Source: Ignavibacteriota bacterium (lineage in GTDB: Bacteria; Bacteroidota; Ignavibacteria; Palsa-1295). Taken from it: DNA of 64,000 nt. The notes below the pieces were generated by a model. The model made no database searches. It saw nothing but the letters and a program-made list of their open reading frames with translations, and had not been told where the DNA came from. The position numbers were made by a program, and so were the translations under genes. The number at the start of each line of letters is the position of its first letter. The stretch's first letter is position 1. Shown in pieces: positions 1,751 to 43,569 of the stretch. Location of the stretch: positions 89,836-153,835 of the forward strand of contig CAWCCK010000033.1 in assembly GCA_963794025.1 (NCBI GenBank), read 5' to 3'.

Positions 1751-1772
1751 GGCTTCTTTCTCGGAAGAAGCC
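1751..1772 (+). terminator. Short hairpin downstream of the first gene (possible terminator)
   Basis: ggcttctt / aagaagcc 8-bp stem with a 6-nt loop, 16 nt after the stop codon. There is no clear T-tract. Confidence 0.35.
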
Positions 1773-1796
1773 CGGAGCATCGTTCTTTGAAAATCT

Positions 1797-2579: not shown

Positions 2580-2693
2580 CCATAGAGAAAAAAGAATAAA
2601 AAACACCGTAAGGGTGTAACAAAATGTTTGAAAACGAATTAATTGTCAGGTAAGATGAACCTTAACAATACTAAAACAGAGGAGAAGAAAGCC

Positions 2694-16400: not shown

Positions 16401-16872
16401 CCACAACGTAATCGGTACCCCAGCCGATCGTGGGAATGATATAGGAACCGTCCGATGTGTACGGATTATGGGACAGATCGTACACCGCAAGATCAGCCGT
16501 ATTGGAATAGACGTGAATCACTTTATTTTCTGCAATGCCGCTCGATTCCATCTCCCAGAATTCGGGAATTTTGTAACTCGAAATCTCATAGGCTGTTACC
16601 GGTATGGGAGTTATAGCGCCAGCAACTCCACCTACATATTGCGATGCCACGAACGCCGTGCAATTCTGATCCGATGTAATGTAAATACGCATATACTTCC
16701 CGCCGAGATCGATGCCCCAATAATTCGATTGCATCGCAAACCAAAAATCGCGGCCTTGTGCAAAGGTGGAATCGTGCTTGAGCGTGCTGACGCTGCTCGA
16801 AAGCTGCGCGTGTGCTGTTGTGGATGCCGCAAGCATAAGCGCCGCAGCGAGTAGGATAGATGTTCGTTTCAT
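13471..16872 (-). CDS. Giant T9SS surface protein, paralog 3
   Basis: 1133 aa, with the same architecture and CTD as paralogs 1, 2 and 4. Confidence 0.8.
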   Translation of the reverse strand: MKRTSILLAAALMLAASTTAHAQLSSSVSTLKHDSTFAQGRDFWFAMQSNYWGIDLGGKYMRIYITSDQNCTAFVASQYVGGVAGAITPIPVTAYEISSYKIPEFWEMESSGIAENKVIHVYSNTADLAVYDLSHNPYTSDGSYIIPTIGWGTDYVVAAYGSLFEGGGSYGFDLPSTMMVVANQDSTVFSFTPPCDCRSSTSGNDAGDPNSTIIVFFADSTYTFTLNRGQCMEFMPVKSEADTGFDMTGTIIHANKPVGVEGGSVCPNIPADYPYCDHVEEMIPPIRTWDETYYATSPVQPPGETQKDAAMYLFISSQPGQTILRQTCDSSLRTECIIPKQFGVFWDELSLGQKFTSTAPFLVVQYLNGATYPDGNNGLGDPAEVVIPSRDQFTKNVVFETPLSVGNIVPYDDYAQIICRVDDAKNVLFDHKGILGFGAVCIDDTFEIFNIPHIAPSVHEVTSDSGVGVYIYGYGYDETYAWGSTEQCKSFQSPDTAAPLATISTECLESFIHLSDTGALASKLDMIRLDSVYNMNFETDLNWVEGSETDTSGYSMTVVNPSKPGILIVSVFDCAGNHTTIRSAYTPIIDSMKPPLQNLGTWLSGPANIRFDTLYNTGQAVFDISELHLLKGNVGFSLFDSIGGPLDLSPLQPGERRLIKITFEAIETIPEFDSIIYGNSCWERSVALIGSGGQANFFVTSQSWPNAVLTQPPTCYPKTVTIFNFSTDTLTIDKAFWKDAFHFHAVSTFPITIPPAPASAQFTIEYCPDSNSLMTPDGTEGSWTSPDVLEGLTEVPHFDSLTGSAVAPSETFTQSIDTTFDCVLASETATSAFTITATGTAPSTIARIAQYDSINFFNLTGTLDNGVSWNPVTTAQTLTPGQTALISVNYIVPDSNNVGFGDNFIAIDGFGDTIGGGPLFLTVNVNFNAGTLNPPSQTFVLPGFQVNNPALTTSSVALQNTARNAPLIVDTIALQELNQYNPAFTFSLPAGVTFPDTLPVGGTLPLTLDFNDSLFDVVKQQTQLIFTTNACAQISETLTAIVAGAGVKETIIPSLDATILPTDDGRALQIILPTNISGSVNFLLVNVLGESVLRSTFGVGTENIDASSLPRGVYFYRLTSGQMSQSGKVILGE

Positions 16873-16897
16873 TGTTGTGTGTTAAAAAATCTGATAT

Positions 16898-19222
16898 TTA
16901 TTCTCCCAAAATAACCTTCCCACTCTGGCTCACTTGTCCCGAAGTTAGCCGGTAGAAATACACCCCTCGCGGCAGCGAAGAAGCATCGATATTTTGCGTT
17001 CCCGCGTTGAACGTAGAGCGCAGTACGCTTTCGCCGAGCACATTGGAAAGCTGGAATGTTATCGGAGCATTCACATCAGATGGAGGGATTATTTCTAAGG
17101 AGCGGCCATCGCTCATGGGAAGGATCGTAATTTGGAACGATACATTTGCAGCAACCGACTCATTCTGTTGCCCGGAACCAATAACGGCCACAGAAATGCT
17201 GTCGCAGTCATTGCCAGCAATAATGCTATCGACGGAGGCCGTCTTTGTGTTGGCCTGAAATTGAATTTCTATCACTCTGCGTCCACCCGTCGGGATCGGA
17301 GATAGATCGAGCGGCCCGCCCGTGCTATCGAACAGCGAAAATCCGACATTGCCATCTCGCAAATGCAGCACGCTCAGATCGAACGGAGCTTGCCCTTGAT
17401 TGATGATGGTATCGAACGCGACATTCGGGGAACCTGAAATCCAAACGCCAAGATTTTGTAGCGGCGGCTCGATCTCGATGAAATTCGGTTTGTACGTGGA
17501 AGTAACCGTCGTTTCATTCCCAGCCAGATCGAACACATCCACAATGAGGATTGCGGGCAGAGCCGGATCGACCACATTGATGCTATATCCGCTGGTATCG
17601 GCTCCCGATCCTTCGATCCAGTCGTTATCGACGTTGAAACTCATATTATAGACCGAATCGAGCAGAATTTCGCCAAGCCCAGTTTGTGTATCGGTGCTGT
17701 TCGGCAGGAACCCGGAATCGCTAAGATGAATGAACGCCCTGTAGCACATACTGCTCGTATCGACGTGTGGTGGGATGGTATCCGGGGAATTAAACAGCGG
17801 GGCTGCGCTCAAAAAAGACCATGCGTAAGCATTATTAAAGCCGTAGCCATAGATATAAACCCCCACGCCGGAATCACTGTTTATCTCATGCGTACCCGGT
17901 GCAATATGCGGTATGTTATACACTTCGAACGTATCATCAATGGGCTGCGCTCCATAACCAAGAATGCTTTTATCATCGAAGGTTACATTCTTGTCGTTCA
18001 CATTACAAATGATATTCGCGTAATCGTCATAAGGAACGATAGTGCCGACAGCGAGCGGTGTTTCCAGTGTGACTGTTTTTGCATATTGTTGGAGGGTAAG
18101 AATAGAAAATTCTGACGGGCCTCCAATGCCATTTATGCTATCCGGATAGGTTGAGCTATTGATATACGCAACAACTAAAAACGGTGCGCTGCTATAGAAC
18201 TTTTGCGCGAGTTCCAATTCATCCACAAATACACCGTATTGATTTGCTATCACGCACTCAACCTGATCGGTCGAATTATATTCATGGCGAAAAATTGTTT
18301 GGTTCGGCTTGGACGCAATAAATACATAGCGCGTATAATCATGGTCAGTCTCGCCGACTGGCTCAGTGACACTTGCCGCGTAGTTGGTAGTGCTCCAGGA
18401 ACGAATGGGTGTGATTGCACTGCACACGAAATTACCCTCAGTATAACCGGCTGGAATATCTGCCAGCATACATCCTCCGATCACGCTAATGGGACGATCC
18501 GCATGAATCAAGGTTCCTGTCAGATCGAAATTATCTGCGTCGACCGCAAAGACGGGCATAAGCTGCATGGATTGGCCTCGATTCAGCGTGACGCTGAACG
18601 GCACTCCTGCCGGAAACGCTACGACCATCGAACTGGAATCCCCAGCGTCAGTGCCGCTTGTACTCTTCCTGCAATTGCAGGAAGGCGTGATGGTGACGGT
18701 GGTGTTATCTTCGGTTGCAGTGATGGTGCATTCGGAAGGATAGTCGAACTGATTACCGCCGGCCTCGTACAACGAACCATACGCAGCCACAACATAATCG
18801 TTACCCAAGCCGACCGATGGAATAAGATAGGAACCATTAGACGAGTAGGTGTTATACGACAGGAAACTGACCGAGATATTCGTGCTGATGGAATAGACAT
18901 GAATCCCCTTGCTCTCGGCGATGCCGCTCGATTCCATTTCCAGCGTATCGGGAACCTTGAAGGCCGAAATCGTATTTGCCGTGACGGGCACCATGGTCGT
19001 GCTTCCATTCAGCGACACATAAGCATTGCAACTAGTTTGGGAAGTAATATAAATACGAATGAATTTACCGCCCAAATTCTCGCCCCAATAATTCGACGGC
19101 AGCGCGAACCAAAAATCGCTGCCGGACGTGTATTTTTCGGAAGTGACGGTGCTCGAAAGCTGCGCGTTAGCCGTGCCGATGGAGAGGCTTAGAATTGCTG
19201 AGAGCAGAAGTAATTTTTTCAT
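16898..19222 (-). CDS. Giant T9SS surface protein, paralog 4 (first gene of the tandem array)
   Basis: 774 aa with a signal peptide, the same N-domain motifs (YIYGYGFNNAYAW) and the same CTD. Only 25 nt separate it from paralog 3. Confidence 0.8.
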   Translation of the reverse strand: MKKLLLLSAILSLSIGTANAQLSSTVTSEKYTSGSDFWFALPSNYWGENLGGKFIRIYITSQTSCNAYVSLNGSTTMVPVTANTISAFKVPDTLEMESSGIAESKGIHVYSISTNISVSFLSYNTYSSNGSYLIPSVGLGNDYVVAAYGSLYEAGGNQFDYPSECTITATEDNTTVTITPSCNCRKSTSGTDAGDSSSMVVAFPAGVPFSVTLNRGQSMQLMPVFAVDADNFDLTGTLIHADRPISVIGGCMLADIPAGYTEGNFVCSAITPIRSWSTTNYAASVTEPVGETDHDYTRYVFIASKPNQTIFRHEYNSTDQVECVIANQYGVFVDELELAQKFYSSAPFLVVAYINSSTYPDSINGIGGPSEFSILTLQQYAKTVTLETPLAVGTIVPYDDYANIICNVNDKNVTFDDKSILGYGAQPIDDTFEVYNIPHIAPGTHEINSDSGVGVYIYGYGFNNAYAWSFLSAAPLFNSPDTIPPHVDTSSMCYRAFIHLSDSGFLPNSTDTQTGLGEILLDSVYNMSFNVDNDWIEGSGADTSGYSINVVDPALPAILIVDVFDLAGNETTVTSTYKPNFIEIEPPLQNLGVWISGSPNVAFDTIINQGQAPFDLSVLHLRDGNVGFSLFDSTGGPLDLSPIPTGGRRVIEIQFQANTKTASVDSIIAGNDCDSISVAVIGSGQQNESVAANVSFQITILPMSDGRSLEIIPPSDVNAPITFQLSNVLGESVLRSTFNAGTQNIDASSLPRGVYFYRLTSGQVSQSGKVILGE

Positions 19223-19596: not shown

Positions 19597-21641
19597 TTAT
19601 TGACTTAGTCTAACGGAATTGATTTCCGCACCTTGCCCTGCTTGGACGCACTCGCGTACTTTGTCGCGGATGCCTTCGCGGGTGAGGCCGACATCGGCGA
19701 GCAACCCTGCCGGCGCGCCGTGTTCGATGAAGGTATCGGGCAACCCAATGGCGAACGGATGAGGAATTGCCGATGAGGGGTGCAGGTGGGAACGTTCCGC
19801 GTAAAATTCGGCGACGGCGCTGCCGAAACCGCCGTTAACCGTTCCCTCTTCGAGCGTGATGATATATTTGAACCGCGCGGCCAGCGCATCGAGCAGCGCG
19901 GCATCCAGCGGCTTAACATAGCGTGCATTCGCCACGGCAACGGAAATACCTTCCCGATCTAGAGTCTTCGGCAGCTTTGATGGCATCGTAAAGCAATGGG
20001 CCAACACCGAGGATAACAGCGTCTTGACCATCGCGCATCATTTCGCCTTGACCGATGGGCAGCGTGCGGAACCCTTTATCGGCCAACGCCACGCCAATGC
20101 CCGCGCCGCGAGGGTAGCGTATCGCGATTGGCACCGTGGGAATTACGAATTACGAATTGCGAATTACGAATTGGGGACGATAGGTCATCGGAAGAATCAA
20201 TATTTTCGTTCGTAATTCGTAATTCGTAATTCGTAATTGGCAGCGTAGCAGTATAAAGCATGTCCCTAAGTTCCTGTTCGTCTTTGGGAACCATGATCGT
20301 CATGTTCGGAATGAGGCGGAGATACGCAAGATCGAACGCGCCGTGATGCGTGGGGCCGTCCGCGCCGACGAGTCCGGCGCGATCCATCGCAAACACGACG
20401 TTTAAGTTTTGCAATGCGACATCGTGAATGATCTGATCGAACGCGCGCTGAAGAAACGTTGAGTAGATCGCGCAGACGGGAATGAATCCCTCCGTTGCCA
20501 TTCCTGCGGCAAAGGTGACGGCGTGCTGCTCGGCAATGCCGACATCGAAGAATTTGTCTGGAACTTCTTTTTGCAGGATGTTCAGTCCCGTGCCATCTGG
20601 CATAGCGGCGGTAATGCCAACCACTTTGGGATTCATTTTGCAAATTTCGACCATCGCTTTACCGAATACTTTCGTGTATTCCGGCGGCTGCGGCGCGGTG
20701 ACAGGCTTTGTAACGGCAACGCCGGTGATCTTATCGAACGCGCCGCTCGCGGCATGATATTTCTGCACATGGGACTCCGCAGGCGCGTAGCCGTGTCCTT
20801 TTTCTGTGATGACATGCAGCAAGAGCGGCCCGCTTTGGTTCTCCAAAAATTGAAGCATTTCTACGAGCTTCACCACATTATGCCCGCTGACCGGTCCGAA
20901 ATACTTGAAGCCGAGGGCTTCGAACATCATTCCCGGCGTCATCACGGCTTTCATCGCATCGACGAGTTTGGAACCTGCGTAACGCAAGCGGCTGTGACCA
21001 TCGAGCACATCCCACACCTGATCTTTTATTTTGCGAAGCGCAGGATTGGTGAGGAGGGAATTAAAATGTTCGTGCATCGCCCACACATTCGGCGCAATGG
21101 ACATTTGGTTATCGTTGAGGATGACAAGAATATTCTTCTTCAGCATCCCGCAGTTATTCAACGCCTCGTACGCAATGCCACCGGTCATGGAACCATCTCC
21201 GATCACGGCTGCGACTTTATAGTTCTCTCCATTGTAATCACGCGCGGTTGCAATGCCAAGCGCGGCGCTGATGGAAGTCGATGCATGTCCCGCGCCGAAG
21301 ACATCGTATTCGCTCTCTTCGCGTTTCAGAAATGGCGCGAGGCCGTCTTTTTTGCGAATGGTCGAGAGCCGATCTTTCCTTCCCGTTAAAATTTTGTGCG
21401 GATACGCCTGATGGCCGACATCCCATATCAGCTTATCCTTCGGCGTGTTGAGCGCATAGTGCAGTGCAACGGTCAGCTCGACGACACCCAACCCCGCGCC
21501 GAAATGCCCGCCGGTTTGCGCGATGGTATCGATGAGATATTCGCGCACATCCGCGCTGATGGCTTCGAGATCGCTAACGGGGTGCTTCCGCAGGTCTTCC
21601 GGGGTGTTGATGCGGTCGAGGAGGGGGTAGGAATTCGTCAT
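19597..21641 (-). pseudogene. dxs: 1-deoxy-D-xylulose-5-phosphate synthase, disrupted (heptamer-hairpin insertion plus two +1 frameshifts)
   Basis: Unmistakable Dxs sequence (GGHFGAGLGVVELTVALHY, DVGHQAYPHKILTGR, GDGSMTGG) runs in frame A to ...MLYTATLP. It continues in frame B (TVPIAIRYPRGAG...AIKAAE) and then in frame C (TLDREGISVAVANARYVKPLD...). The shifts are at ~20135-20150 and ~19970-19980. Confidence 0.8.
20140..20238. repeat. Heptamer-arm hairpin element inside dxs
   Basis: The left arm (GAATTAC-type heptamers, 33 nt) is identical to the arm in xseA at 27321-27353. The complementary right arm is ttcgtaattcgtaattcgtaattcgtaatt. About 100 nt are inserted between codons LP and TVPIAIRYPRG. 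Confidence 0.85.
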
Positions 21642-21841
21642 AAGGTGTATGAGTAACGAGTAACGTGTACCGAGTTTGGGTGTTTCAAAACTCGGTATTC
21701 GGTTTCATGGCTCGTTGCTTAGAATAAATCCTCAGAAACAGGGAAAACGTTCACTCTATATTATTGGCCTTTAGAAACTAAGAATTATATTCTTGACGAA
21801 TTGGTTTTGGTCAAATTCAAACCATTTTATTGAACAAATTT

Positions 21842-23602
21842 ATGGAATCAGTCTCACATCCCGGACGGCCCCCCCGCTCTTCAAAACACTTAATAAATAT
21901 TATTGCAACTACACGGCGCAAACAGGTCAAGTCAGGGATTTCAGCATCCTCGCCTGACAATCCTACATATGTCCTATTTCTTGGGGCCGGAGCAAGTGTA
22001 ACAAGTGGAGTAAAAACAACTACTCAGATGATTGATGAATGGCGTGATAGCCTCTGGAAATCGCAAGGTAGCGACGATCGTGAAATATTTTTAAAGCAGT
22101 TCCTTTGGTATGGGCAGCAAGAAGAATATTCGTCATTATTTGAGTTAGTTTATGACCTTCCAAGTCAGCGAAGGGATTATATTGAAACATGTCTTGCAAA
22201 AGCTTCCCCGTCGTGGGGTTATATCTATTTGGTAAATTTTATTCGACACGGAGTGTTTAATACTATTTTTACAACGAATTTCGATGATTTATTGAATGAG
22301 GCTTGTTATAAATTTTCAAGTGAAGTTCGCCCAATTGTTTGCTCCCATGACTCCAGCATTAAAACAATACGAGTGGCTTCTAAAAGGCCTAAAATTATAA
22401 AGCTTCATGGCGATTTCTTATATGATGATATCAAGAATACGTCGAACGAGCTTGAGACTCTCGAGAATAACATGCGAGAGAAATTTAGGCAATACGCAAG
22501 CGAACACGGATTTATTTTTGTGGGATACGGCGGGAATGATCGCTCGATTATGGATGCCCTTAATGTACTTTTGCAAAGCAAAAATAATTTTCCTCATGGG
22601 ATTTATTGGTGTATTTTAAAAGGGTCTAAGATTCATCCAAACGTAGAAGCCCTTACCCGTTTCCCAGCCTTTAATCTTGTTGAGATAGCTGGCTTCGACT
22701 CGTTTTTCGCGGAAATGCGAGGTCGATTAGAACTGGAATTGCAGCCTGAAGTTTTCGATCCATATGTTGCTCTGAGAGACGCATTAAATGGATTCGTTGA
22801 AAAGGCAAAAATTAGTTCCGATGGGAATGAAATCATCGACAAGGATATGGATCGTCTAGCGTCAAATATTGAACGGATGGAGCGTGCATTAGATGGCACT
22901 ACTGAGAAAATGATTTTTGATGCGTCCTCGGATTCAAAGATTCCCGTTCAGCTTGAAGGGAGTATAACGGAAATTCCAGTGCCATTCCGATTTTTGGCAC
23001 AGGCGCAAGAACGAAAAGGCAATATTGAAATTGCCCAAAAATACATGCTTAAACAACTTGATACTGCACCGACGAGGGCAATGTTTGAGGCATCTTTCGA
23101 ACTCCTACTCAAAAAGCCGAATTTGGAATTTCAAGCGAAATTGGTAAAACATCTGTGTGATTCAACCGAGCTTCTTGCAAAAGATTCCTCCTTGGGAGTT
23201 AATATGGCTGTCAAATTGATGGGGATTGAACAATATGATGATGCCGTTAATATTCTCCAGTCGGGATTTGAGGCAAGTAGAAAATCGGACGGGACTTCTG
23301 CCGGGGATCTCGAATTCTATATTATTAACATGGCTCTGATCAAAAGACTCCGTGGGGTGCCACTGACAGAGGAGCAAGTGGGAACCCTGGAGGCTATTGT
23401 GAGTAGAAATGATATTGGGCGCATTACATTTGCTTCGCTACTACTTCTTGATGAGTTCGGAGCGGCCGAGGATGTGCTTAAGAAGTTAATTCTTAACAAA
23501 AAGGCAGAGAAGGAACTTGCTACGGCTCCCATTATGACGTTGATGGCTGGGCATATCACAGACTCGATCGTGATTTCGTGGATTGAAAATTCAACCAAAT
23601 AA
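21842..23602 (+). CDS. SIR2-like (SIR2_2 family) domain protein with ~250-aa alpha-helical C-terminal domain; candidate NADase defence effector
   Basis: Motifs YVLFLGAGASVTSG, IFTTNFDDLLNEA, IIKLHGDF and FVGYGGNDRSIMD are typical of defence-type SIR2 domains. The gene is AT-rich relative to its flanks. The ORF opens at TTG 21830; the first ATG is at 21842. Confidence 0.65.
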   Translation: MESVSHPGRPPRSSKHLINIIATTRRKQVKSGISASSPDNPTYVLFLGAGASVTSGVKTTTQMIDEWRDSLWKSQGSDDREIFLKQFLWYGQQEEYSSLFELVYDLPSQRRDYIETCLAKASPSWGYIYLVNFIRHGVFNTIFTTNFDDLLNEACYKFSSEVRPIVCSHDSSIKTIRVASKRPKIIKLHGDFLYDDIKNTSNELETLENNMREKFRQYASEHGFIFVGYGGNDRSIMDALNVLLQSKNNFPHGIYWCILKGSKIHPNVEALTRFPAFNLVEIAGFDSFFAEMRGRLELELQPEVFDPYVALRDALNGFVEKAKISSDGNEIIDKDMDRLASNIERMERALDGTTEKMIFDASSDSKIPVQLEGSITEIPVPFRFLAQAQERKGNIEIAQKYMLKQLDTAPTRAMFEASFELLLKKPNLEFQAKLVKHLCDSTELLAKDSSLGVNMAVKLMGIEQYDDAVNILQSGFEASRKSDGTSAGDLEFYIINMALIKRLRGVPLTEEQVGTLEAIVSRNDIGRITFASLLLLDEFGAAEDVLKKLILNKKAEKELATAPIMTLMAGHITDSIVISWIENSTK

Positions 23603-23632
23603 AAATGGCGACCTCCACGGTCGCCATTTTTT
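23601..23632 (+). terminator. Rho-independent terminator of the SIR2 gene
   Basis: aaaaatggcgacc tccac ggtcgccattttt is a perfect stem with flanking A and T tracts, and it overlaps the stop codon. Confidence 0.8.
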
Positions 23633-23833
23633 AATTCTCGAATTGAGGGGGTTCGGTAGGCATAAATTATTTTCCTTTCGTAATTCAAAGACAAAAACGG
23701 ATGGGGCTATTCAGTGGTTCCGTCATCCCGCACATCAAAATATTATTAACTGTTGATGGGTTATGGTGCCATCATCTTAACTTACGTTAGACGACAAAAC
23801 CTTATCTTTTTAGACTAAAATCCTCGATTTACA

Positions 23834-23925
23834 AAATTATTACATGCCATAAGTCGTTGTAAGTCAAGCATTTACGGTGTTTTGCAAAATATCTATACTA
23901 TAATACAGATATTTGGGAAAACTAA
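23834..23925. repeat. AT-rich ~90-nt direct repeat, copy 1 (contains palindrome aaatatct...agatattt)
   Basis: It aligns with 23979-24072. The shared core is tttgcaaaatatctata-tata-ta-agatatttgggaaaa. The TTTG ... gATATTTG arrangement resembles a Bacteroidota -33/-7 promoter. Confidence 0.6.
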
Positions 23926-23978
23926 TTCCGTTTTGTTGACACTAATTCCTATTTTCGCAATAAAAAACGGGTTTTCAG

Positions 23979-24072
23979 AAATTATTACAAACTATAACTA
24001 CATGTAAATCAATCGATTAACGTATGTTTGCAAAATATCTATATTATAGTATAGATATTTGGGAAAAGCATT
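23979..24072. repeat. AT-rich ~90-nt direct repeat, copy 2 (perfect 11-bp inverted repeat aaatatctata/tatagatattt)
   Basis: See copy 1. It ends 10 nt before the xseB stop codon. Confidence 0.6.
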
Positions 24073-24081
24073 TCTATGAGA

Positions 24082-24351
24082 TTAAAACAGGCCTTCAGAC
24101 TCGGGCAAATCGTTCATTTCAGAAGTGTCGGAAGTGGTCATTTCCTCATGCACAGCCGCGAGCTTTTCCACGCGTAGCTCGGCATCGGTGAGGACGGATT
24201 TGAGCTTTGCCGAAAGCGTCATCGCTTCTTCATAAAGCGTGAGCATCTCGGCGAGCGGGACGTTGCCCTGTTCCAGCCGATCGACGATGGTGGAAAGGCG
24301 TTCGAATTCGGATTCGAAGGAGGGGGTGGTGTTTTCTTGTTTGCGTGGCAC
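24082..24351 (-). CDS. xseB: Exodeoxyribonuclease VII small subunit
   Basis: 89 aa. FESEFERLSTIVDRLEQGNVPLAEMLTLYEEAMTLSAKLKSVLTDAELRVEKL is the canonical XseB helical pattern. Confidence 0.85.
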   Translation of the reverse strand: MPRKQENTTPSFESEFERLSTIVDRLEQGNVPLAEMLTLYEEAMTLSAKLKSVLTDAELRVEKLAAVHEEMTTSDTSEMNDLPESEGLF

Positions 24352-24394: not shown

Positions 24395-25015
24395 TTATCC
24401 TTCCCGCACATTGACTCCAAGAGCATCGGTAAGCCCCTTAATATCGAGAAACATACTGCGATATCGAGTCTTATCGGTCAATTTTTCAGATGGCCTAACG
24501 AATTGAAATCCGAATCTCTCATAAAATTTTGAAACATCATAGACGCGATCAGGAATCTCGGCATCGAATAGAGCATCTACGGTTACAAAACGAACCCCTA
24601 CTTTAGGAGCAATGATCCTTGCGATATATTCTAAAGCCCACTCAACCAACATGGAGCCTACTCCTTTTGCTTCCATATCGCGAGCCAGTCTTCCGATTTT
24701 AACTGCGGGAAGAGTTCCATACGGAATTCCTTCCGATTTGAGCAGATCGTTAGCATCTTTTCTACGGCGAGGTATTGCATCGGCGCATAGGGTTATGTAA
24801 CCGAGCAAACGATCGTTTTCGCGTATAATCCATGCCTTCCCTACATGCTCTTTTACGTCCCGTGCAATGTCGGCATTCCAGTACTCCACAAACTCAGCTC
24901 TATCACAACGAAAACCCCGACCAGAATTAATATGATCGGGGTTCCATAGTTCTATTTCCAATTTCGCGGAGTCAGGCATGCTGTGTTCTCGGATCGCTTC
25001 CAAATTGGTGCTCAT
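24395..25015 (-). CDS. GNAT-family N-acetyltransferase, toxin-like (TacT/KacT-type context)
   Basis: GNAT core: LGYITLCADAI...PAVKIGRLARDMEAKGVGSMLVEWALEYI...FYERFGFQFV. The start is uncertain: ATG 25015, or ATG 24979, which overlaps the stop of the upstream small ORF (ATGCCTGA). Confidence 0.6.
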   Translation of the reverse strand: MSTNLEAIREHSMPDSAKLEIELWNPDHINSGRGFRCDRAEFVEYWNADIARDVKEHVGKAWIIRENDRLLGYITLCADAIPRRRKDANDLLKSEGIPYGTLPAVKIGRLARDMEAKGVGSMLVEWALEYIARIIAPKVGVRFVTVDALFDAEIPDRVYDVSKFYERFGFQFVRPSEKLTDKTRYRSMFLDIKGLTDALGVNVREG

Positions 25016-25166
25016 TGGAATTATTATTCTGCTTTGCAACGATTCGTTCAATCGTTGCGGCATATTCAGCATTGATAATAGGCTTGCCAGTGGACAATGC
25101 CTCTTCAACGGCCTTAGCCTGCTTCTTTGAAAGCGGCTGAGTCACGGTATGTGCTGGATATTTCAT
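24972..25166 (-). CDS. Small ORF upstream of the GNAT gene, possible antitoxin
   Basis: 64 aa, same strand, overlapping the GNAT start region. No recognisable motif; called on position only. Confidence 0.3.
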   Translation of the reverse strand: MKYPAHTVTQPLSKKQAKAVEEALSTGKPIINAEYAATIERIVAKQNNNSNEHQFGSDPRTQHA

Positions 25167-25260
25167 ATTTGCCCGCTCCTTTCTGTAAAATGTTGTTAAA
25201 TTTGACTAATTCCCAAACGAGTAGCTACTCGCCTAAGTTTCATGCCAGTCTGAGTGTTCT

Positions 25261-25345
25261 TTCAATCGAACCTTACCGTAATTCTTCCATCGGCGAAGAT
25301 GAGGATGCCGTTTTTTTCATCGCGCGTGAGGAGTTGCGAGAGGCG
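25261..25345. repeat. 85-bp duplicate of the xseA 3' end (direct repeat with 26697-26781)
   Basis: 81/85 nt are identical to the last 27 codons plus stop of xseA (RLSQLLTRDEKNGILIFADGRITVRFD*). It brackets the 1.35-kb Panacea module. Confidence 0.9.
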
Positions 25346-25435: not shown

Positions 25436-25867
25436 TTATGTGTGCTTTAATTGCGATGGACATACTTCGTGCTCTGGATCCCACCAAAGCAAGCGACAAA
25501 CTGGCCCGAGTCTAATGCCGTGAAACCTTCTCTCACCATCAACTGTAAAGGAAAAAATACTCTCTGTATCATCTTGATTAATTTCTTCAAGCCTTTTTTG
25601 AGCTACTGGCGATAGGCTCGATAAATCAATGGAATGATTTCGTTTACCCTTAATCTCTGACCATTTCATACTCTCGAATTTTTTAATTCGATCAAGAATA
25701 GCATTGAAGTCATCCATGCTCATTTTAGTAAAACACCACGGGCCGCCAATATCAATAATTTGGAACGACCATGTCGGCTTCTCATCATCAGAACTACCCT
25801 GAGGTGCACGAGGTAACTTTTTCTCGTACTCACTAAGTACCGATTTGGGTTTCAGGTTTCCACCCAT
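25436..25867 (-). CDS. Uncharacterised 143-aa protein, putative toxin partner of the Panacea antitoxin
   Basis: Its ATG lies 1 nt after the stop of the upstream DUF4065 gene. The C-terminal segment IFSFTVDGERRFHGIRLGPVCRLLWWDPEHEVCP is reminiscent of RelE/ParE-fold toxins. This is an impression only. Confidence 0.45.
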   Translation of the reverse strand: MGGNLKPKSVLSEYEKKLPRAPQGSSDDEKPTWSFQIIDIGGPWCFTKMSMDDFNAILDRIKKFESMKWSEIKGKRNHSIDLSSLSPVAQKRLEEINQDDTESIFSFTVDGERRFHGIRLGPVCRLLWWDPEHEVCPSQLKHT

Positions 25868-25868
25868 C

Positions 25869-26345
25869 TTATCCCGGCAATGCGCTATAATACTCCATTA
25901 TGGCTTCATTCGTAATTTCGTTGTTTCCTCTCTCGCCGTCCGCAAGTCCGATTCGGGCGTTTCTCCATGGGTCTTCTCGGTGAGTAAGATCACTAAGCCA
26001 TTGCGAATCATGTTTTGCATAAAAAGCAATTATTCGGTCGATTGTGTCAGTCTGAGCTTGAGTAAGTTTCTTTGGATCGCCAGAGCATGAACGGATACTG
26101 TAAAATCCTTTATTAGCGAAATATAGGCTCGGTATAACGGGTCCATTTGCCCATGCCTCTATGCGGTCATTGAAAAGAGGCTTCTCGTCCCAAACCAACG
26201 ACCACACATGAGAATAATAGGTGAGCTTTTGTAGCTTTACGGCGGGAATTTCTCCCGTTTTTGAAAGAATATAGGACGCAACATCAAAAGCGTTAATGGA
26301 TGTAATTACTTCATTCGGCGCTTTCTCTGGATTTGATCGGCTCAT
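25869..26345 (-). CDS. Panacea (DUF4065/SocA-like) domain antitoxin
   Basis: VKLQKLTYYSHVWSLVWDEKPLFNDRIEAWANGPVIPSLY matches the conserved core of the DUF4065/Panacea domain. Confidence 0.65.
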   Translation of the reverse strand: MSRSNPEKAPNEVITSINAFDVASYILSKTGEIPAVKLQKLTYYSHVWSLVWDEKPLFNDRIEAWANGPVIPSLYFANKGFYSIRSCSGDPKKLTQAQTDTIDRIIAFYAKHDSQWLSDLTHREDPWRNARIGLADGERGNNEITNEAIMEYYSALPG

Positions 26346-26697
26346 TCTAAGAACAGAAAATATGTTTGACGAAAGGTTCCCTTTGTTGTTTTTGTAGTGT
26401 TTGTAACTTCATGTTTCTTTAGCTAAAGAAACACGAAGTGGGTTAAGTTACGTTCCTAATGATATTATACCCTTTTTGTTCATCTAAACTACAATAATGA
26501 TGGTAAACCTGTTCCCATTCCGTATCTTTCAATACTTTATGGACTTTTATGATGAATGGTGATTCCGAAATTATTCGGATTCGTAAGGTGACTCGTTTAG
26601 TACCTCAAGGAGAGGCAGAAGAGAGCAAAAAATGCCGAAGATTTGCATTAATACCTGTTGTAACAAGAATGCAAGAAGCAATTCATTATTATGGCTT

Positions 26698-28047
26698 TCA
26701 ATCGAACCTTACCGTAATCCTTCCATCGGCGAAGATGAGGATGCCGTTCTTTTCATCGCGGGTCAGGAGTTGCGAGAGGCGCGGGATGATTTCGCCGTCC
26801 GTTGATTCGAGGGCAGTAAAGCCGCGGTCGAGCACGCGGTCGGGATTCATCGCGGCGAGCTTGGCGGCGTCGCGTTCCAGTTTTAATCTGCGGCGTTCGA
26901 GGGAATGAATGACGGAACGCGAGGCATCCAATATCTCGGCATTCATTCGTTCCCGCAGGGTGCGAATGGCATTCGTCATAGCAAACACAAGGGAACGTTT
27001 ATCGGAAGCAGACTCAACGTCGCGTTTATAGTGCAAGATTATTTGTCGCATCTGACGTGTAAGTCCCACGCGGCTGCCGTTGAGCGCAGAGATTAGTTCC
27101 TCTTGGTTCGGCGTAGCAAGTTCAGCGGCTGCGGTTGGCGTGGGTGCGCGGAGATCGGCTACGAAATCGGCGATGGTAAAATCCACTTCGTGCCCGACAG
27201 CGCTGATGACGGGAATTTTCGAAGAAAAGATCGCGCGGGCAACAGCTTCCTCGTTGAAGTTCCACAAATCTTCTAAGGAACCGCCGCCTCGCCCGACGAT
27301 GAGGACATCAGGCCGGGGAGAATTACGAATTACGAATTGCGAATTACGAATTGTTTTTTTTACTTCGTCCTCATTCGTAATTTGAAATTCGTAATTCGTA
27401 ATTAAATTAAATTCCTGAATCGCGCGCGCGATCTCTAACTCTGCGCCGACGCCCTGCACGGCGCATGGGCGGACGATCACGCGGACGATGGGGTAACGGC
27501 GGCGGAGCGTGGTCAGAATATCTTGTAAGGCCGCGCCGTTTTCGCTGGTAACGATTCCGATGGTTTGTGGGAACCTCGGGATGGGCCGCTTGCGCGATTC
27601 TTCGAAGAGACCTTCGGCCATCAAGCGCGCATATCGTTCCTCATACGCTTGCTGTAGATCGCCGATGCCGCTGGGGCGCACTTGAAACACATCGAGCTGA
27701 TAATTCCCGCGCGGAGGATAGACTGTGAGCCTACCACGGCACACGACTTTCATTCCATCCTTCAGATCGAAATTAAGCGTTCGGCTTTTCCAGAATACGG
27801 AGGAGATCTGTGCGCCTTCATCTTTCAGCGTCCAATACCGGTGGCCGGAGCGATGGTCGATGAAATTCGAGATCTCGCCTTCGACCGTTACCTCCGGAAA
27901 CGCGCCTTCGAGCATATCACGAATAGATTTTGTGAGCGCGCTTACCGTGAGCGGGCCATCGCCGTTAGTAGATTCATCTTCCATTATTTCCGAATTATTA
28001 CGGAATAGAGAGGATTTTGCGGCTTTTTGGTAATAGTTGCGTGGCAT
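26698..28047 (-). CDS. xseA: Exodeoxyribonuclease VII large subunit with a 28-codon in-frame repeat insertion
   Basis: OB-fold N-terminus (VSALTKSIRDMLEGAFPEVTVEGEISNF...HRSGHRYWTLKD), the DVLIVGRGGGSLEDLWNFNEE motif and a coiled-coil C-terminus. The insert ITNYEFQITNEDEVKKTIRNSQFVIRNS is encoded by the heptamer hairpin. The start may be the internal ATG at 27984. Confidence 0.85.
   Translation of the reverse strand: MPRNYYQKAAKSSLFRNNSEIMEDESTNGDGPLTVSALTKSIRDMLEGAFPEVTVEGEISNFIDHRSGHRYWTLKDEGAQISSVFWKSRTLNFDLKDGMKVVCRGRLTVYPPRGNYQLDVFQVRPSGIGDLQQAYEERYARLMAEGLFEESRKRPIPRFPQTIGIVTSENGAALQDILTTLRRRYPIVRVIVRPCAVQGVGAELEIARAIQEFNLITNYEFQITNEDEVKKTIRNSQFVIRNSPRPDVLIVGRGGGSLEDLWNFNEEAVARAIFSSKIPVISAVGHEVDFTIADFVADLRAPTPTAAAELATPNQEELISALNGSRVGLTRQMRQIILHYKRDVESASDKRSLVFAMTNAIRTLRERMNAEILDASRSVIHSLERRRLKLERDAAKLAAMNPDRVLDRGFTALESTDGEIIPRLSQLLTRDEKNGILIFADGRITVRFD
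27320..27403. repeat. Heptamer-arm hairpin element, in-frame inside xseA (84 nt)
   Basis: aattacgaattacgaattgcgaattacgaattg ... cattcgtaatttgaaattcgtaattcgtaatt. The length is a multiple of 3 and there are no stops in the gene frame. Confidence 0.85.
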
Positions 28048-28127: not shown

Positions 28128-28274
28128 CTGTCATCCTGAGCGGAGTTTTTCTCGACGAAGTCGAGAAAAACGGAGTCGAAGGATCTCATGTAGTTTGGCT
28201 CGGTGGTGAATGTCCGGGGATCCTTCGACTGCGCAATCCGACGCGTTGCGTCGAATTGCTCCGCTCAGGATGAC
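28128..28274. repeat. Family-2 structured repeat (opposite orientation to 13303)
   Basis: Same outer stem. Hairpins gtttttctcgac/gtcgagaaaaac and gcaatccgacgc/gcgtcgaattgc are in swapped order relative to copy 13303. Confidence 0.85.
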
Positions 28275-28446
28275 ATTAGAAATTGAGCTTGCTCACCTGA
28301 AATTTCGTATATTTGTAGTCCTTTGTTCAAGGGAAATTTATCTTCTTGCTTTTGGTGTTGCACTAATGGGGGATTTTCCTGCCCTCCAGAGTGTGCGATT
28401 TAACTTAATTTTTTCGGCCCGTCTTATTTTAATTCGGGGTCTCAAT

Positions 28447-31400
28447 ATGAAAAATCTTTTACGGCTTTCCTGCTTCCTAACCTTCCTTCTTTTATTATCC
28501 ACGCCAATCTTCGCGCAGATCGGGCCGCCACAGTGGACGGCCGTCCCGATGGCGTTCAACGGAAAAATTCACATCGTAAAATTCCTCGATGCCGTCGGCG
28601 CGCCGCTTACGGGATTTGTAGGTGATGATACCGGAATTTCATTCACAACCAATGGCGGTACCTCCTGGACACGCGCGACGATCAATAGCCCCAATGCCGA
28701 TCCTTTCAAGCCTTTTCAGACGGGATGGGTCAATGATATTACGTTTAAGGATGCGATGAATGGTTTTGCCGTGATTGATAGTAACTACGCTATGGGGAAT
28801 AGCAGTACCGACGCCGGTATTCTCATCACGACGAACGGCGGTCAGTCCTGGATCTTCGATGACGCTAACGGCACGCCGGATAGCGGCAGAGGAATTTATT
28901 ACAATACCGCGAATAACCGGCTCTACGTAGCAAGCTGCGATCGAGGGCTTGTGGTTTCTACTGATAACGGCGGCACTTGGAGCGTGCAGGATACCGGTAC
29001 CAGCTATACGGGTTTTGCATTCAACGGCAATGGCTTGGGCGTTGTGGCGACGGAAGGGTCGTCGTGCGTAAATTTTCCATTGCCGTATAAAGTCTATTGG
29101 ATGAACACGACCGATGGCGGAATGCACTGGGCGAAGACCCAGATGAACACGGATTGCTGGCAGCCGGTAGGCATCCCGACGACGGAGACGTTCTTTGGCT
29201 CGACTACGGTGAATTGCGCCGGGGTCAATAATGCGATCATGCGTTCGGATAACGGCGGTTATGCGTTCTCTCCGGTGCTCGGATATCAGCCTGCTAATAT
29301 TGACACCTTGTCAGAAGCGATGGCAGGTGATGCGTGCTCGCTCTTTGCATCTTCTTTTTCTCAGGATGGAATGTGGTTCTCGACGAACGATGGCGCAAAG
29401 TGGCAGGTCATACCGTTTTCTCCGAACCCCGGCGTCAATACTCGATTTTATGTTTCGCCGGACACCGTGTGGAGCTTCGTGGGCGATTCGCTCAAATGGT
29501 TCGTGCGCCCGGCTACTGCCGATATTCATATCTGGCCCGATACCATTGCATTCAAACATGCATCCTGCGGTGCGCTTTCGGATACGACGATCCACGTCTT
29601 TGGCTGTAACTGCCCCAATAGCCCGGAACTCGACAGCGTAAAGGTTGTCCGTTTGACGAGCACCGTAGATACCATAAAAGCCAATACCTTTAACCCTCCT
29701 GCGTTACCGCAACCGTTGTGTACCCTCGGTCTGACGGCTGCCGATTCCATTGAGCTGCAATTTCAACCTACCGGTGATGCAGCGGATAGCGCTAATGTTA
29801 AATTGGTATTTCTCGACAATGGGGTACTTGTCGATACCTTCATTCACATGAACGCCAACGGGATCGTGCCGATCCTTCAGGTGCCACCGGCACCCATCAA
29901 TTTATCCGGGCCTGCGTGTTATGGGGACATCGATACGTGTATCGAGATCGTCAATCAGAGCTGTGACGCTATTACTCTCACAAGCGCTACCGTGGGTGAA
30001 CAACCTCAAGATATGGCCGAGCTTCAACTCACGGGAGCATGCATACTCAATGCGGCGCCGATCACGCTGGGGCCGGGCGCATCCTGGTGTTTTCCCATTG
30101 ATTACTTCCCCGGCCTTAAGGCCAACACCCAAAATGCGTCTTTTTCCATTAATTACGTCGATAACGGTGTGAATGCCACAACGAACACTGTTGAGGTCAA
30201 TGGCAATACGACGACGAGTGTCAGCCCATCGTTCCGTGGGTTCAATATAAACGCGAAAAGCTGCTGCGACGTCCCGTCATTCACGACCATTTATTTTACC
30301 AATCCCACCTGTGACACCATTGTGCTTACCAATCCGACCATCACGGGAACAGGTTCATACACGGGGAATTTTCAGTTCGATACCAGCGGCGCCTTAGGCG
30401 TCAAGTTCCCCGTAAAGATACCACCGGTGAAAGGGCACGTCGGGCTTACGATCCTTATTGATTGCAAAGCAACGGATATTAAAGCTATCGTACACTTCCC
30501 TTATACGATCATTTCACCATTCGCATCCGTTATCTGTGCGAATAATGTGGACTCCACTCTGTATGAGACCGGCGTGCTGCTCGATACGCTCACGTTAGAC
30601 GTTCAAAACCCGATTACGCCCGCGACTGTGAGCCCCCTCAGCGTTAATTTTGGGAGCGTAAATTGCTGCGATACTACGGAGAAACGAACGATCAAGATAA
30701 CGGCAGGATGTAAGCCGGATACGTTGACGAAGTTTGCGCTATCTGGTAACATTAATGGCAATTTCGTCTTTGATACGGTAGGAGGCAGTGGGCTTCCTAT
30801 TTACCTAGATTCAGCACAAACAACAACAATCCAAGTTGGTTTTAACCCGCTTTGCGGAAGTAATGGCGGTAAAGAGCCAAACGGAAATATAGTTATTTCG
30901 CAGACATCCGAAGGCGTTGCAAGCGCGCTTAACATCCCGCTCATTGCCGATACGACCAATGCGCCTTCGGCCAGCCTTAGTACGTATGCGATGGGCTTTG
31001 ATTCTGTTCGTTCTTGCGCAGGCCAGACGTGCAACACGCTTACAGTCACGAATGCTTCGTGCGGAGCGGTCAACCTCAGTTTGTTAACGCCGCCCGTCAA
31101 TCCGGCATTTACGGTTGGGAGCGTGACTACGAGTACGATCGCTCAGGGAGGCACCACGACCGTTTCCGTTTGCATGAACCCGAGCGCGAGTAAAGTTACC
31201 GGCGCGATCCAGGATTCAGCAGTCTTCGAGGCCAGTGCTAATGGGTTATCCTCGACGGTTACCCTTTTGCTCACGGCCTACATCGAGCCGCCGGTGCCGT
31301 CGTACACCCTGACGCAGCTTGCGAACCTGACCATCTGCGATTCGACTTCGATGACGGAATCGTTCTCGGTTACGAACACCGGCTCGTGCTACACGTATGA

Positions 31401-41392: not shown

Positions 41393-42031
41393 CTACTCGA
41401 CGAGCATTCCATACGGGTTGCGGGGGATGAAGAGTCCTTTAATGCAATCGGCGTTGCGGATGCAAATCTGAGTGTGGTTTTGTTTTCGGAATCCGGCTCC
41501 GGGATATAGTTCCTCGCCTTCGGGGAACATGGCTCGTACGGAATCGAACGGTGGAAGGTTCTCAAAACCTACATGATGATCGCGTATGAGTTGATGCAGA
41601 TAGTTTATTACTGCACAGTCCAAGTGTCTGGCGCGACGGTCGCTGCCGCCTTTGTTTTCCGGCAGTTGGGTTCCCGCGAGTTCCGTTGCTTGCAGCAGCG
41701 TTTTGTGTGCCCTTCTTACCTGATCTATGGATTTTGCATCGAGCAGGTCAAGGCAATTGTTGAGGGATATTACCGCGCCGAGTACTGCGGGCGTTTCGAC
41801 CTTATGCTTTTGGCTGTATGGATGTTTTTTAAGATGCCGCGCCCATTGCATTGCACTCTTCGGGTCGTTTTCCCAAAAGTAAACACCAGAGCCCAGCCAA
41901 TCGAAACTGTTGGTGCTGGCGCGTAAAGTTCCAGGATGAAGAGCGAGTTGGTCTCTAAGCTTCCGATCGCACCCGTGAAACGCGAGCACGAGGTTTGGCC
42001 GTGGTGTGTACATGGGACGTTCGTCCACCAT
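41393..42031 (-). CDS. DUF3990-like protein (predicted ADP-ribosyltransferase-fold toxin-like)
   Basis: LAFHGCDRKL...FDWLGSGVYFWENDPKSAMQWA...AVISLNNCLDLLD follows the pattern I associate with DUF3990. The alternative start is ATG 42013. Confidence 0.4.
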   Translation of the reverse strand: MVDERPMYTPRPNLVLAFHGCDRKLRDQLALHPGTLRASTNSFDWLGSGVYFWENDPKSAMQWARHLKKHPYSQKHKVETPAVLGAVISLNNCLDLLDAKSIDQVRRAHKTLLQATELAGTQLPENKGGSDRRARHLDCAVINYLHQLIRDHHVGFENLPPFDSVRAMFPEGEELYPGAGFRKQNHTQICIRNADCIKGLFIPRNPYGMLVE

Positions 42032-42179
42032 GTGAGCGGTAATGTGCCGTCAGCTTGCCATGTGCGTCGATAATCCCTGCTGCTCGCAGTGATGCAAGGG
42101 CAGACTTCTTACTCGCCAAATACTTTTTAGCGGAAAGCTCGATGACCTCGACGTATTGTTTTGCCTGGCTGTCGCTCAT
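41955..42179 (-). CDS. Small ORF upstream of the DUF3990-like gene, possible antitoxin/partner
   Basis: 74-aa ORF with a helical N-terminal ~48 aa. Its 3' end overlaps the downstream gene start. Confidence 0.3.
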   Translation of the reverse strand: MSDSQAKQYVEVIELSAKKYLASKKSALASLRAAGIIDAHGKLTAHYRSHGGRTSHVHTTAKPRARVSRVRSEA

Positions 42180-42260
42180 GGTCTGATATTTTGGTTAGCA
42201 CAAGTTGTGCCGAAAATAGGAACACTTGTTATGCAAAAAGATTCAGTCAACCTTAGCAAA

Positions 42261-43561: not shown

Positions 43562-43569
43562 ATTATTAA

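Follow-up and report, generated by a model that had tools for sequence, protein, structure and literature searches.

DSR2 (defence-associated sirtuin 2) of Bacillus subtilis is a single polypeptide of about 1000 aa in which MID and CTD are distinct domains, and it joins an N-terminal immune SIR2 NADase to an alpha-helical repeat sensor of a phage protein; its alpha-solenoid C-domain binds the phage tail tube protein. Avs5 (SIR2-STAND) and the STAND/TPR receptors also carry a SIR2 effector and a TPR-type phage-protein sensor in one protein. In the short-Argonaute system SPARSA the SIR2 domain is part of a SIR2-APAZ chain of 584-587 aa (8jkz, 8in8, 8jl0). Replacement of N142 or H186 of SPARSA by alanine abolishes the NADase activity, and the roles of the two residues are debated in the same paper (PMC10781750). 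More generally, immune-clade SIR2 proteins show a 12-fold enrichment in the vicinity of defence systems (bioRxiv 10.1101/2024.09.18.613514).

The window analysed here, i.e. a contiguous stretch of 64,000 nucleotides from an Ignavibacteriota bacterium, encodes a SIR2-TPR protein (Table 1) that is probably a phage sensor and killer in one chain and a member of a large uncharacterised family. Our preferred reading, to which we give a probability of about 0.6, is that of a self-contained DSR2-like abortive-infection protein in which the TPR domain would sense a phage protein and the SIR2 domain would deplete NAD+. The original prediction of an intact 586-aa ORF with a SIR2 domain was confirmed by the ORF list and by the profile matches. 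There is an alternative TTG start at 21830, the frame is intact to 23602, and an identical protein is found on an independent Logan contig.

Table 1. Positions of the SIR2-TPR gene, its domains and its surroundings in the window.
Feature	Position	Strand	Basis
SIR2-TPR gene, 586 aa from ATG	21842..23602	+	ORF list
SIR2 (SIRim-type) Rossmann domain, residues ~41-296	21962..22729	+	Pfam SIR2_2, PADLOC, SPARSA alignment
GAGAS (within SIR2 domain)	21983-21997	+	
Asn146 codon (within SIR2 domain)	22277-22279	+	
His189 codon (within SIR2 domain)	22406-22408	+	
Helical linker (297-350), low-confidence loop (351-362), beta-hairpin (366-379)	22730..22984	+	AF2 models
TPR-like alpha-solenoid, residues 382-586, putative sensor	22985..23599	+	AF2, Foldseek, profile
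Conserved C-terminal cap module, residues ~435-570	23144-23551	+	hhalign to families A3, A4, A7
Divergent dxs/SIR2 intergenic region	21642..21841	.	Alignment with L093 and L141 xseB 3' ends
Intrinsic terminator: 13-bp perfect stem, 5-nt loop, U-run	23601..23637	+	Folding
AT-rich spacer (GC 0.33), right end of insert	23638..24081	.	
xseB, flanking host gene	24082..24351	-	Pfam Exonuc_VII_S

The N-terminal domain had been called a defence-type SIR2, and the Pfam and PADLOC profile searches agree. SIR2_2 (PF13289) matches the protein with 62.8 bits (cutoff 24.5, E 4.8e-17), so that this score, the Gly-rich NAD loop and the Asn/His pair together place it in the SIR2_2 or immune SIR2 ("SIRim") superfamily. 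Three of the motifs originally named are present as given, i.e. GAGxS (GAGAS, residues 48-52), KLHGD (187-191) and VGYGGND (227-233); the fourth, given as TTNFDDLLE, had lost one N and actually reads TTNFDDLLNE (144-153). In the alignment to the SPARSA chain 8jkz, N146 falls on N142 and H189 on H186; this catalytic pair is intact, and both residues are, like the GAGxS loop, invariant across 60 homologues. The nearest solved relative is the SPARSA SIR2-APAZ chain both by sequence (E 7e-24) and by fold (Foldseek E 6e-11, with DSR2 second at E ~1e-7), and the best PADLOC models are those of Aga_SIR2-PNTD1-PNTD2 (E 7.6e-66). Judged by its sequence, the SIR2 domain falls into the pAgo-associated subclade of the immune branch, and for this reason automatic tools will mislabel the protein as SIR2-APAZ. 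A case in point is a 624-aa relative next to the integrase of a 14-kb Vibrio Vinavirales prophage, which was labelled pAgo__SIR2APAZ by its depositors.

These matches, the nearly equal length of the SPARSA chains and the depositors' label are what one would expect if the gene encoded the SIR2-APAZ subunit, orphaned or degenerate, of a SPARSA system whose pAgo was lost or is encoded elsewhere. We consider this highly improbable and largely refuted, because the resemblance is confined to the SIR2 part: of the 558 positions of the PADLOC profile only 7-280 are covered, the matches stop at residue ~290, and the APAZ part (positions 281-558, PNTD1/2) is left unmatched. The C-terminal ~200 aa were modelled by AF2 as helical with pLDDT above 90, and Foldseek returned only TPR proteins for this domain, with consensus TPR (CTPR), OGT and LapB at the top (E ~1e-3). 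A profile of the domain matches consensus-TPR chains at E 1e-13, whereas the single 586-aa sequence gave no Pfam TPR match. The C-domain had been described as helical and without a recognised motif; it is helical in the model and matches no named family, and the fold can now be refined. A multi-helix repeat solenoid with a TPR sequence signal has the marks of the TPR repeat superfamily, and according to the confident model the C-domain is a TPR-like solenoid, i.e. neither an unknown fold nor an APAZ domain; the latter was considered and rejected on the unmatched profile positions and the TPR-only structural matches. No short pAgo adjoins the gene (its neighbours are dxs and xseB), none was seen at 15 homologue loci or in the 14-kb prophage, and none is among the best 25 of the 107 PADLOC families matched by the other long ORFs of the window; HerA and TIR are not among these 25 either. 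The SPARSA chains are thus the nearest relatives of the SIR2 domain, with the same Asn/His pair, but the window protein has neither an APAZ domain nor an Argonaute partner and its activation cannot be nucleic-acid-guided through pAgo.

In its proposed working principle the protein resembles DSR2. Both are single polypeptides with an N-terminal immune SIR2 domain and a helical-repeat region, and the whole model aligns to DSR2 chains at E ~1e-7. However, the global rmsd to these chains is ~20 A, the window protein is much shorter than DSR2, as had been noted at the outset, its SIR2 domain is closer to the SPARSA type and its C-domain is a short solenoid of 205 aa. With the full-length Dsr2 model NF041819 of NCBIfam, which has a cutoff of 1400 bits, the protein reaches 22.2 bits and is matched at residues 142-192 only; the PADLOC Dsr2 model reaches E 4.5e-6 over 50 residues, and the 13 PADLOC families found at E <= 0.01 do not include a Dsr1 model. 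Avs5 differs in having an NTPase/NOD, which was found in the window protein neither by Pfam, NCBIfam and PADLOC nor in the model; the latter consists of the SIR2 domain, the linker and the TPR domain only, and 586 aa leave no room for an NTPase. Pfam, PADLOC and NCBIfam gave no SLOG, STAND or APAZ match in the protein. The absence of the SLOG domain of ThsA, which had been pointed out before, is in line with the Pfam result, and Thoeris ThsA models match the SIR2 domain only weakly (E 7e-5), with no TIR in the neighbourhood. Nor is a HerA ATPase among the identified neighbours or conserved across the homologue loci. The earlier statement that no HerA, pAgo or TIR partner is adjacent therefore holds, the neighbours being dxs, xseB, two TA-like pairs and xseA (Pfam). 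The PADLOC candidate PDC-S65 (PDLC05061/PDLC05060) is similar in model length (592 and 503 positions) and matches at E 5e-29 and 2e-17, but the 100-bit match covers profile positions 32-347 of 592, i.e. the SIR2 part only; we found no mention of PDC-S65 in the literature.

The two halves of the protein differ in their conservation. Across homologues the SIR2 domain is 62-65% identical and the TPR domain only 23-26%, as expected for a fixed effector combined with a diversifying sensor, and the linker/hairpin segment (residues 297-379) is poorly conserved as well (18-40%). Within the solenoid there is a C-terminal cap (LNKxQIKxH ... GAxILL ... WPIxKLL) that is also found in other proteins. It is homologous to the C-termini of a family of ~585 aa (A3; hhalign 99.2%), in which 8 of 17 sampled proteins match DUF4365 at E <= 0.1 (best 6e-06), and to those of a family of ~400-450 aa with an ERRNLFVH motif (A4; hhalign 99.3%). 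The latter is possibly HEPN-like, as suggested by this motif and two weak RTasHEPN matches (E 0.003-0.007). PDB profile searches with the DUF4365-type and HEPN-like families gave no informative match, and their members matched no known defence model in PADLOC. The cap is further homologous to the C-terminus of a SIR2 class of ~870 aa (A7; hhalign 96.7%, E 3e-10), which has the same SIR2 subtype (45-51% identical) but contains ~290 more helical-repeat residues between the SIR2 domain and the cap. This class occurs in Bacteroides, Pseudomonas, Acinetobacter, Pectobacterium, Vibrio and others and is unnamed in PADLOC beyond its SIR2 domain. We tentatively suggest, as somewhat less likely than not, that the cap marks an undescribed but widespread class of NTPase-less single-protein receptors in which one sensor scaffold carries interchangeable killing domains. 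These may include the SIR2 NADase (in forms of ~560 and ~870 aa), a DUF4365 PD-(D/E)xK nuclease and a HEPN-like RNase, and the genes may travel in very small cassettes that lack an integrase and use the 3' ends of conserved genes as insertion sites. At five C-terminal positions that hardly vary in the family the window copy has another residue (Q499L, H503L, G531A, A532S and W562A), so its sensor may be altered or decaying.

The surroundings of the gene show that it is of foreign origin and inserted at a recurrent cargo hotspot. Its GC and GC3 are 0.417 and 0.385, as compared to 0.540 and 0.647 in dxs and 0.541 and 0.644 in xseB, and it lies on the strand opposite to these two genes; both features had been predicted. 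The predicted interruption of the xseB-dxs linkage is also seen, as dxs and xseB are ~50 nt apart in 10 related genomes; the xseA-xseB-dxs operon is otherwise conserved. In the closest Kapaibacteria genomes xseA, xseB and dxs are spaced by about 50 nt and the SIR2-TPR gene is absent from the xseB-dxs site. This spacing and the difference in GC3 (0.39 vs ~0.64) indicate that the gene sits on an insert of ~2.3 kb. The insert lies between two copies of the xseB 3' end: its left edge is a decayed copy at 21717-21753 (aligned with L093 and L141), and the right-hand copy is the xseB 3' end itself at 24082-24120. The strong terminator attributed to the gene follows the stop codon (stem 23601-23631, -19.5 kcal/mol, z -6.35) and is flanked by A/T, so it is possibly bidirectional. 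The spacer contains two 41-nt repeats with palindromes (23881-23921 and 24027-24067); an Rfam scan of 19-29 kb gave only chance matches below the gathering score, none of them in the spacer. There is no integrase or transposase ORF in either insert (ORF list). The adjoining TA modules of the original prediction correspond to the two TA-like pairs among the neighbours, and other relatives carry an RM enzyme, a BrnT/A-like pair or an AAA ATPase at the same site. In the comparison of sister genomes, the xseA/xseB/dxs junctions of Kapaibacteria thus behave as a small hotspot of defence/TA cargo.

Full-length homologues number more than 2000 and come from many phyla. An all-against-all comparison of the flanking ORFs of 15 homologue loci gave no conserved neighbour. 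The sole recurrent one is def (peptide deformylase), which precedes the gene at two loci with a gap of 21 nt or ~300 nt and could hint at a link outside defence. Most loci are flanked by ordinary housekeeping genes and not by dense defence islands, and at some the gene stands beside PycTM, Mrr_cat/M78 or an integrase with a Rep gene. The many single copies among housekeeping genes, the adjacency to def and the fact that TPR domains commonly bind host proteins would suit a cellular, non-immune enzyme that acts in deacylation, ADP-ribosylation or NAD signalling on a host substrate recruited by the TPR domain. We regard this as improbable, since the SIR2_2 domain is of the pAgo-associated type and not a classical sirtuin, the nearest relatives lack the gene, its composition is foreign, a prophage and an integrase-bearing element carry copies, and nuclease-type domains are joined to the same C-terminal module. 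Nor are the homologues uniformly associated with housekeeping genes, as there is no synteny between loci and one relative resides in a prophage. Foldseek found nothing at E <= 1e-3 for the full model among the BFVD viral structures. We found no paper on the SIR2-TPR family, and the broader SIR2/TPR literature led only to DSR2, Avs5, SPARSA, FAM118 and SAMD9.

In the preferred DSR2-like reading, the SIR2 domain would be a NAD+ glycohydrolase whose activity is held back as long as the cell is uninfected. The TPR-like solenoid would bind a phage-made protein, and the resulting oligomeric or conformational change would enable the Asn146/His189 site to hydrolyse NAD+, the loss of which would starve the infected cell and stop phage replication. 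What we infer here is the NADase activity and its autoinhibition, that the trigger is a protein and which one it is, and abortive infection as the outcome, hence also the defence phenotype. As TPR domains bind proteins in general, the ligand could just as well come from the host, and SIR2 domains can also ADP-ribosylate or deacylate instead of depleting NAD+. It is accordingly conceivable, if rather unlikely, that the protein is a defence or addiction effector that does not act through a bulk loss of NAD+ set off by a phage protein, i.e. one that ADP-ribosylates a target or makes a signalling nucleotide, or that as a guard senses the loss of a host factor or stabilises the cassette like a toxin. 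Immune SIR2 domains do not all share one catalytic chemistry, as the debated SPARSA residues illustrate, and an integrase-less cassette beside TA modules with an atypical sensor cap would fit such a role. On the other hand, the closest characterised relatives, SPARSA and DSR2, are NAD+ hydrolases, as are ThsA and SIR2-HerA, and no conserved antitoxin-like small ORF accompanies the gene.

If the preferred reading is true, a compact protein of 586 aa, with no partner gene and no NTPase, would be added to the list of SIR2 defence proteins. The family is common in environmental phyla, i.e. the Bacteroidota/FCB group, Planctomycetota, Calditrichota and KSB1, which defence catalogues compiled from cultured Proteobacteria and Firmicutes cover poorly. 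It is also an annotation trap, as SIR2-APAZ models of the DefenseFinder/PADLOC type match the family strongly and "pAgo" may then be reported without an Argonaute. Finally, a cap shared by SIR2, nuclease and possibly HEPN-like proteins would provide a direct handle on what such sensors recognise.

The SIR2-TPR gene is a single intact ORF, for which an alternative in-frame TTG start lies at position 21830. An independently assembled Logan contig encodes the identical protein among the same neighbours, so the ORF is not an assembly artefact of the window record. In composition (GC 0.417, GC3 0.385) the gene is sharply unlike the host genes dxs (GC 0.540, GC3 0.647), xseB (0.541, 0.644) and xseA (0.533, 0.587). 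It ends in a terminator hairpin with a fold of -19.5 kcal/mol (z -6.35 against shuffles). The AT-rich spacer between the terminator and xseB holds two repeats of 41 nt at a distance of 146 nt, and each contains an internal palindrome (AAATATCTATA...TAYAGATATTT). The repeats are absent elsewhere in the window and have no Rfam match, and they could be operator-like sites or the remnant of a cassette end.

Features of the locus and of the SIR2-TPR protein (window nucleotides unless residues are indicated)
Feature	Position	Strand	Remark
dxs	19597-21641	-	three frames: 20076..21641, 19913..20134, 19597..20031
Decayed copy of ancestral xseB 3' end	21717-21753		from alignment; stop included
SIR2-TPR ORF	21842 (ATG)-23602	+	586 aa; stop 23600-23602
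Terminator hairpin	23601-23631, then U-run	+	perfect 13-bp stem beginning at the SIR2-TPR stop codon
41-nt repeats	23881-23921, 24027-24067		
Functional xseB 3' end	24082-24120		
GNAT pair	24395-25166		237-aa GNAT acetyltransferase ORF (206 aa as called on Logan contig) and overlapping 64-aa ORF
87-nt direct repeat, 95% identical	25259-25345 (duplicate), 26695-26781 (genuine xseA 3' end)		flanks SocA-Panacea/143-aa pair
Panacea pair	25436-26345		143-aa MAG6450/NsnC-like protein and SocA/Panacea antitoxin
GAATTAC hairpins	20140-20239, 27320-27404, 55434-55541, 57452-57519		tandem heptamers and their inverse
SIR2 Rossmann domain	residues to ~296		AlphaFold2 model
Helical linker	residues 302-350		AlphaFold2 model
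Loop, low model confidence	residues 351-362		AlphaFold2 model; pLDDT < 50 at 354-361
Beta-hairpin	residues 366-379		AlphaFold2 model
Helical repeat solenoid	residues 382-586		AlphaFold2 model; pLDDT mostly > 90

All SIR2 motifs named in the original prediction were found, i.e. GAGAS (48-52), TTNFDDLLNE (144-153), KLHGD (187-191) and VGYGGND (227-233), and Pfam assigns residues 141-262 to SIR2_2 (E 4.8e-17; 62.8 bits, the cutoff being 24.5). The top PADLOC models are Argonaute-associated SIR2 proteins; the match to Aga_SIR2-PNTD1-PNTD2 (PDLC02419, E 7.6e-66) is confined to profile positions 7-280 of 558, that is to the SIR2 part, and leaves the APAZ part unmatched. The closest solved chains are SPARSA SIR2-APAZ proteins (8jkz, 8in8, 8jl0; E 7e-24, only query residues 88-288 aligned). 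This alignment pairs N146 with Geobacter N142 and H189 with Geobacter H186, and alanine at either position of the Geobacter protein abolishes NADase activity (PMC10781750). Conservation across 60 homologues is 100% for the GAGxS loop and for T144, N146, F147, D148, D149, K187, H189, G190, D191, G228, Y229, G231 and D233.

The AlphaFold2 model of the whole protein, built with 60 homologues as input, has a mean pLDDT of 86.9. When it was searched with Foldseek, SPARSA chains came on top (~290 aligned columns, E 6e-11), followed by DSR2 chains at E ~1e-7 and an rmsd of ~20 A; this pattern indicates a shared class of architecture (SIR2 plus helical repeats) and not a shared structure. As a single sequence, the C-domain gave no Pfam, NCBIfam or PADLOC match. 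Its profile matches consensus-TPR chains (E 1e-13), and a separate model of residues 300-586 (pLDDT 87.6) retrieved TPR proteins exclusively (consensus TPR, OGT, LapB, Sec17; best E 1e-3). These results identify the C-domain as a divergent TPR-like solenoid: it had been described as helical, which is correct, and as uncharacterised, which does not hold for its fold. We also considered an APAZ domain in this position, which is ruled out by the end of the PADLOC match at profile position 280 and by the TPR-only Foldseek result.

A profile search with the C-domain against 1.84 billion representatives (E <= 1e-3) returned 685 proteins. Beyond the SIR2 family there are two groups, whose matches are limited to the last ~130-250 profile positions and lie at the protein C-terminus. 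The first group, A3 (~585 aa; hhalign probability 99.2%, E 1.5e-19, 244 columns), has conserved E, D and QxK residues, and 8 of 17 sampled members match DUF4365, a PD-(D/E)xK-type domain (best E 6e-06 in a scan with a limit of E 0.1). One member adjoins a DUF6361/helicase/WYL gene set with a RadC gene shortly upstream. In the second group, A4 (~400-450 aa; probability 99.3%, E 1.1e-20), the N-domain carries a conserved TERRNLFVHxDG motif consistent with the HEPN Rx4-6H pattern, and two members have weak RTasHEPN matches (E 0.003-0.007); we tentatively regard it as a HEPN domain. The same terminal cap (probability 96.7%, E 3.3e-10) is found in a ~870-aa class of the same SIR2 subtype (45-51% identity), which is common in Bacteroides, Pseudomonas, Acinetobacter, Pectobacterium, Xenorhabdus, Vibrio and Stenotrophomonas. 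The groups have the cap consensus YYxLNKxQIKxH ... GAxILLxxxxEAE ... WPIxKLL in common. The effector is swapped on one cap, and a single sensor-like scaffold with varied, putatively cell-killing domains is a pattern typical of defence proteins.

The foreign origin of the gene is evident at its insertion site. Dxs places the window in Ignavibacteriota/Candidatus Kapaibacterium (top genomes 97% and 94% identical in this protein). In ten relatives (loci L141, L093, L094, L096, L099-L102, L104 and L105) xseA, xseB and dxs are consecutive with gaps of ~50 nt, whereas the operon of the window is broken up by two low-GC blocks. For the block with the SIR2-TPR gene, window positions 19663-21647 align to dxs and 24095-24348 to xseB of L141 at the DNA level, thus ~2.4 kb of the window stands in place of 59 nt, and the predicted interruption of the xseB-dxs linkage is borne out. 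The second block, between xseA and xseB, consists of the GNAT/64-aa and SocA-Panacea/143-aa pairs, both TA-like and low in GC (GC3 0.37-0.40). The 87-nt repeat resembles a scar left by a cassette that was inserted at the xseA 3' end; the ORF list of the window contains no integrase in either block. A GNAT pair also lies downstream of dxs in the relative L097.

Other relatives carry different cargo at the same junctions, named here from reading N-terminal sequences and not from profile searches: a ~476-aa P-loop ATPase in L095 (7273-9950, together with a BrnT/BrnA-like pair) and L097 (8495-9931), and a 1000-aa type IIG-like restriction-modification enzyme with a 464-aa protein in L103 (2695-7124). 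Taken together, this makes the xseA|xseB|dxs site a small hotspot for cargo, and the proposed defence-island context is upheld.

The dxs gene of the window is read in three frames and therefore has two frameshifts, near 20135 and 19980-20030, while in relatives it is one ORF of 674-716 aa; it is either a pseudogene or affected by assembly indel errors. GAATTAC hairpins (23 pattern matches, 0 expected by chance) lie within the coding sequence of dxs and, in frame, of xseA (ITNYEFQITNE...IRNSQFVIRNS), and similar elements occur in the L141 xseA and L093 dxs copies. At ~42000-51500, PADLOC points to a second defence cluster: at the level of the region, a Type III methyltransferase (E 8e-129) and restriction enzyme (E 1e-115), AbiLi, PDC-M38A/B and AriA-like ATPases are strongly matched. 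The flanks (13471-19222 and 28210-32691) encode very large secreted proteins with terminal T9SS (Por) sorting tails. Those on the upstream side are tandem paralogues, of which L141 and L093 have at least 3 copies. None of these flanking genes has a bearing on the SIR2-TPR finding.

More than 2000 proteins match the SIR2-TPR protein at E <= 1e-3. The best 120 of these are 515-693 aa long and 39-50% identical at a query coverage of 68-100% (mostly >= 90%), the closest relatives reaching only ~46-50%. Identity is very uneven, 62-65% in the SIR2 domain versus 23-26% in the TPR region. The full-length form is present, among GTDB species representatives, in Rhodothermales, Balneola, Flavobacteriaceae, Planctomycetota, Phycisphaerales, Caldithrix, KSB1 and a 'delta proteobacterium' MAG, and the 80 loci kept include no member of Ignavibacteriota/Kapaibacterium. 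The gene is solitary in all nine homologue contexts, mostly amid unrelated housekeeping genes; in some a Pycsar-type PycTM, Mrr_cat/M78 or DUF6161 gene adjoins, and one is an element with integrase and Rep protein. The near-identical loci L005 and L006 differ in the gene immediately upstream. When the flanking ORFs of 15 loci were compared all against all, no neighbour was shared except peptide deformylase in two distant genomes, L173 (6134-8716, the delta proteobacterium) and L175 (6351-8707, Caldithrix, gap 21 nt), where the homologue follows directly on the same strand; the 13 other loci lack this adjacency. In a 14.4-kb temperate Vibrio prophage (Vinavirales, PM2-like; PQ189367.1), a 624-aa homologue (1354-3228; 39.5% identity over 87% of the query) adjoins the integrase. 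The depositors labelled this homologue 'pAgo__SIR2APAZ', although the genome encodes no Argonaute, and the label probably reflects a mis-annotation that affects the family systematically.

For each named system compared, features that define it are missing from the protein. SPARSA is nearest by SIR2 domain, but APAZ and pAgo are absent here, as are the SLOG domain and ThsB partner of ThsA and the HerA partner of SIR2-HerA. In working mode the protein can be likened to DSR2, whose model gives 22 bits where the cutoff is 1400, and to Avs5 minus its NTPase, the NOD being absent. Matches to the PADLOC candidate PDC-S65 are limited to the SIR2 half.

The evidence fits best with abortive infection by a single protein that would work like DSR2: the TPR solenoid would bind a phage protein, binding would relieve the inhibition of the SIR2 domains or drive their assembly, and NAD+ would be hydrolysed at the N146/H189 site. 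Architecture, catalytic residues, foreign origin, absence of a partner and effector swapping are established here, while activity, trigger and outcome are predicted. Caution is warranted as many homologue loci lie outside obvious defence islands, and five near-invariant cap residues are changed in the window copy (Q499L, H503L, G531A, A532S, W562A). The finding of an immune-type SIR2 protein on an insert, with no partner, is real, and the defence interpretation is supported as a candidate. We regard the protein as a predicted NADase of the immune SIR2 type whose short, putative TPR sensor is novel; the working principle is already known, and the family is large, unnamed and prone to mis-annotation as SIR2-APAZ. 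The shared cap ties this family to nuclease-bearing relatives, which makes the target of the sensor experimentally approachable.
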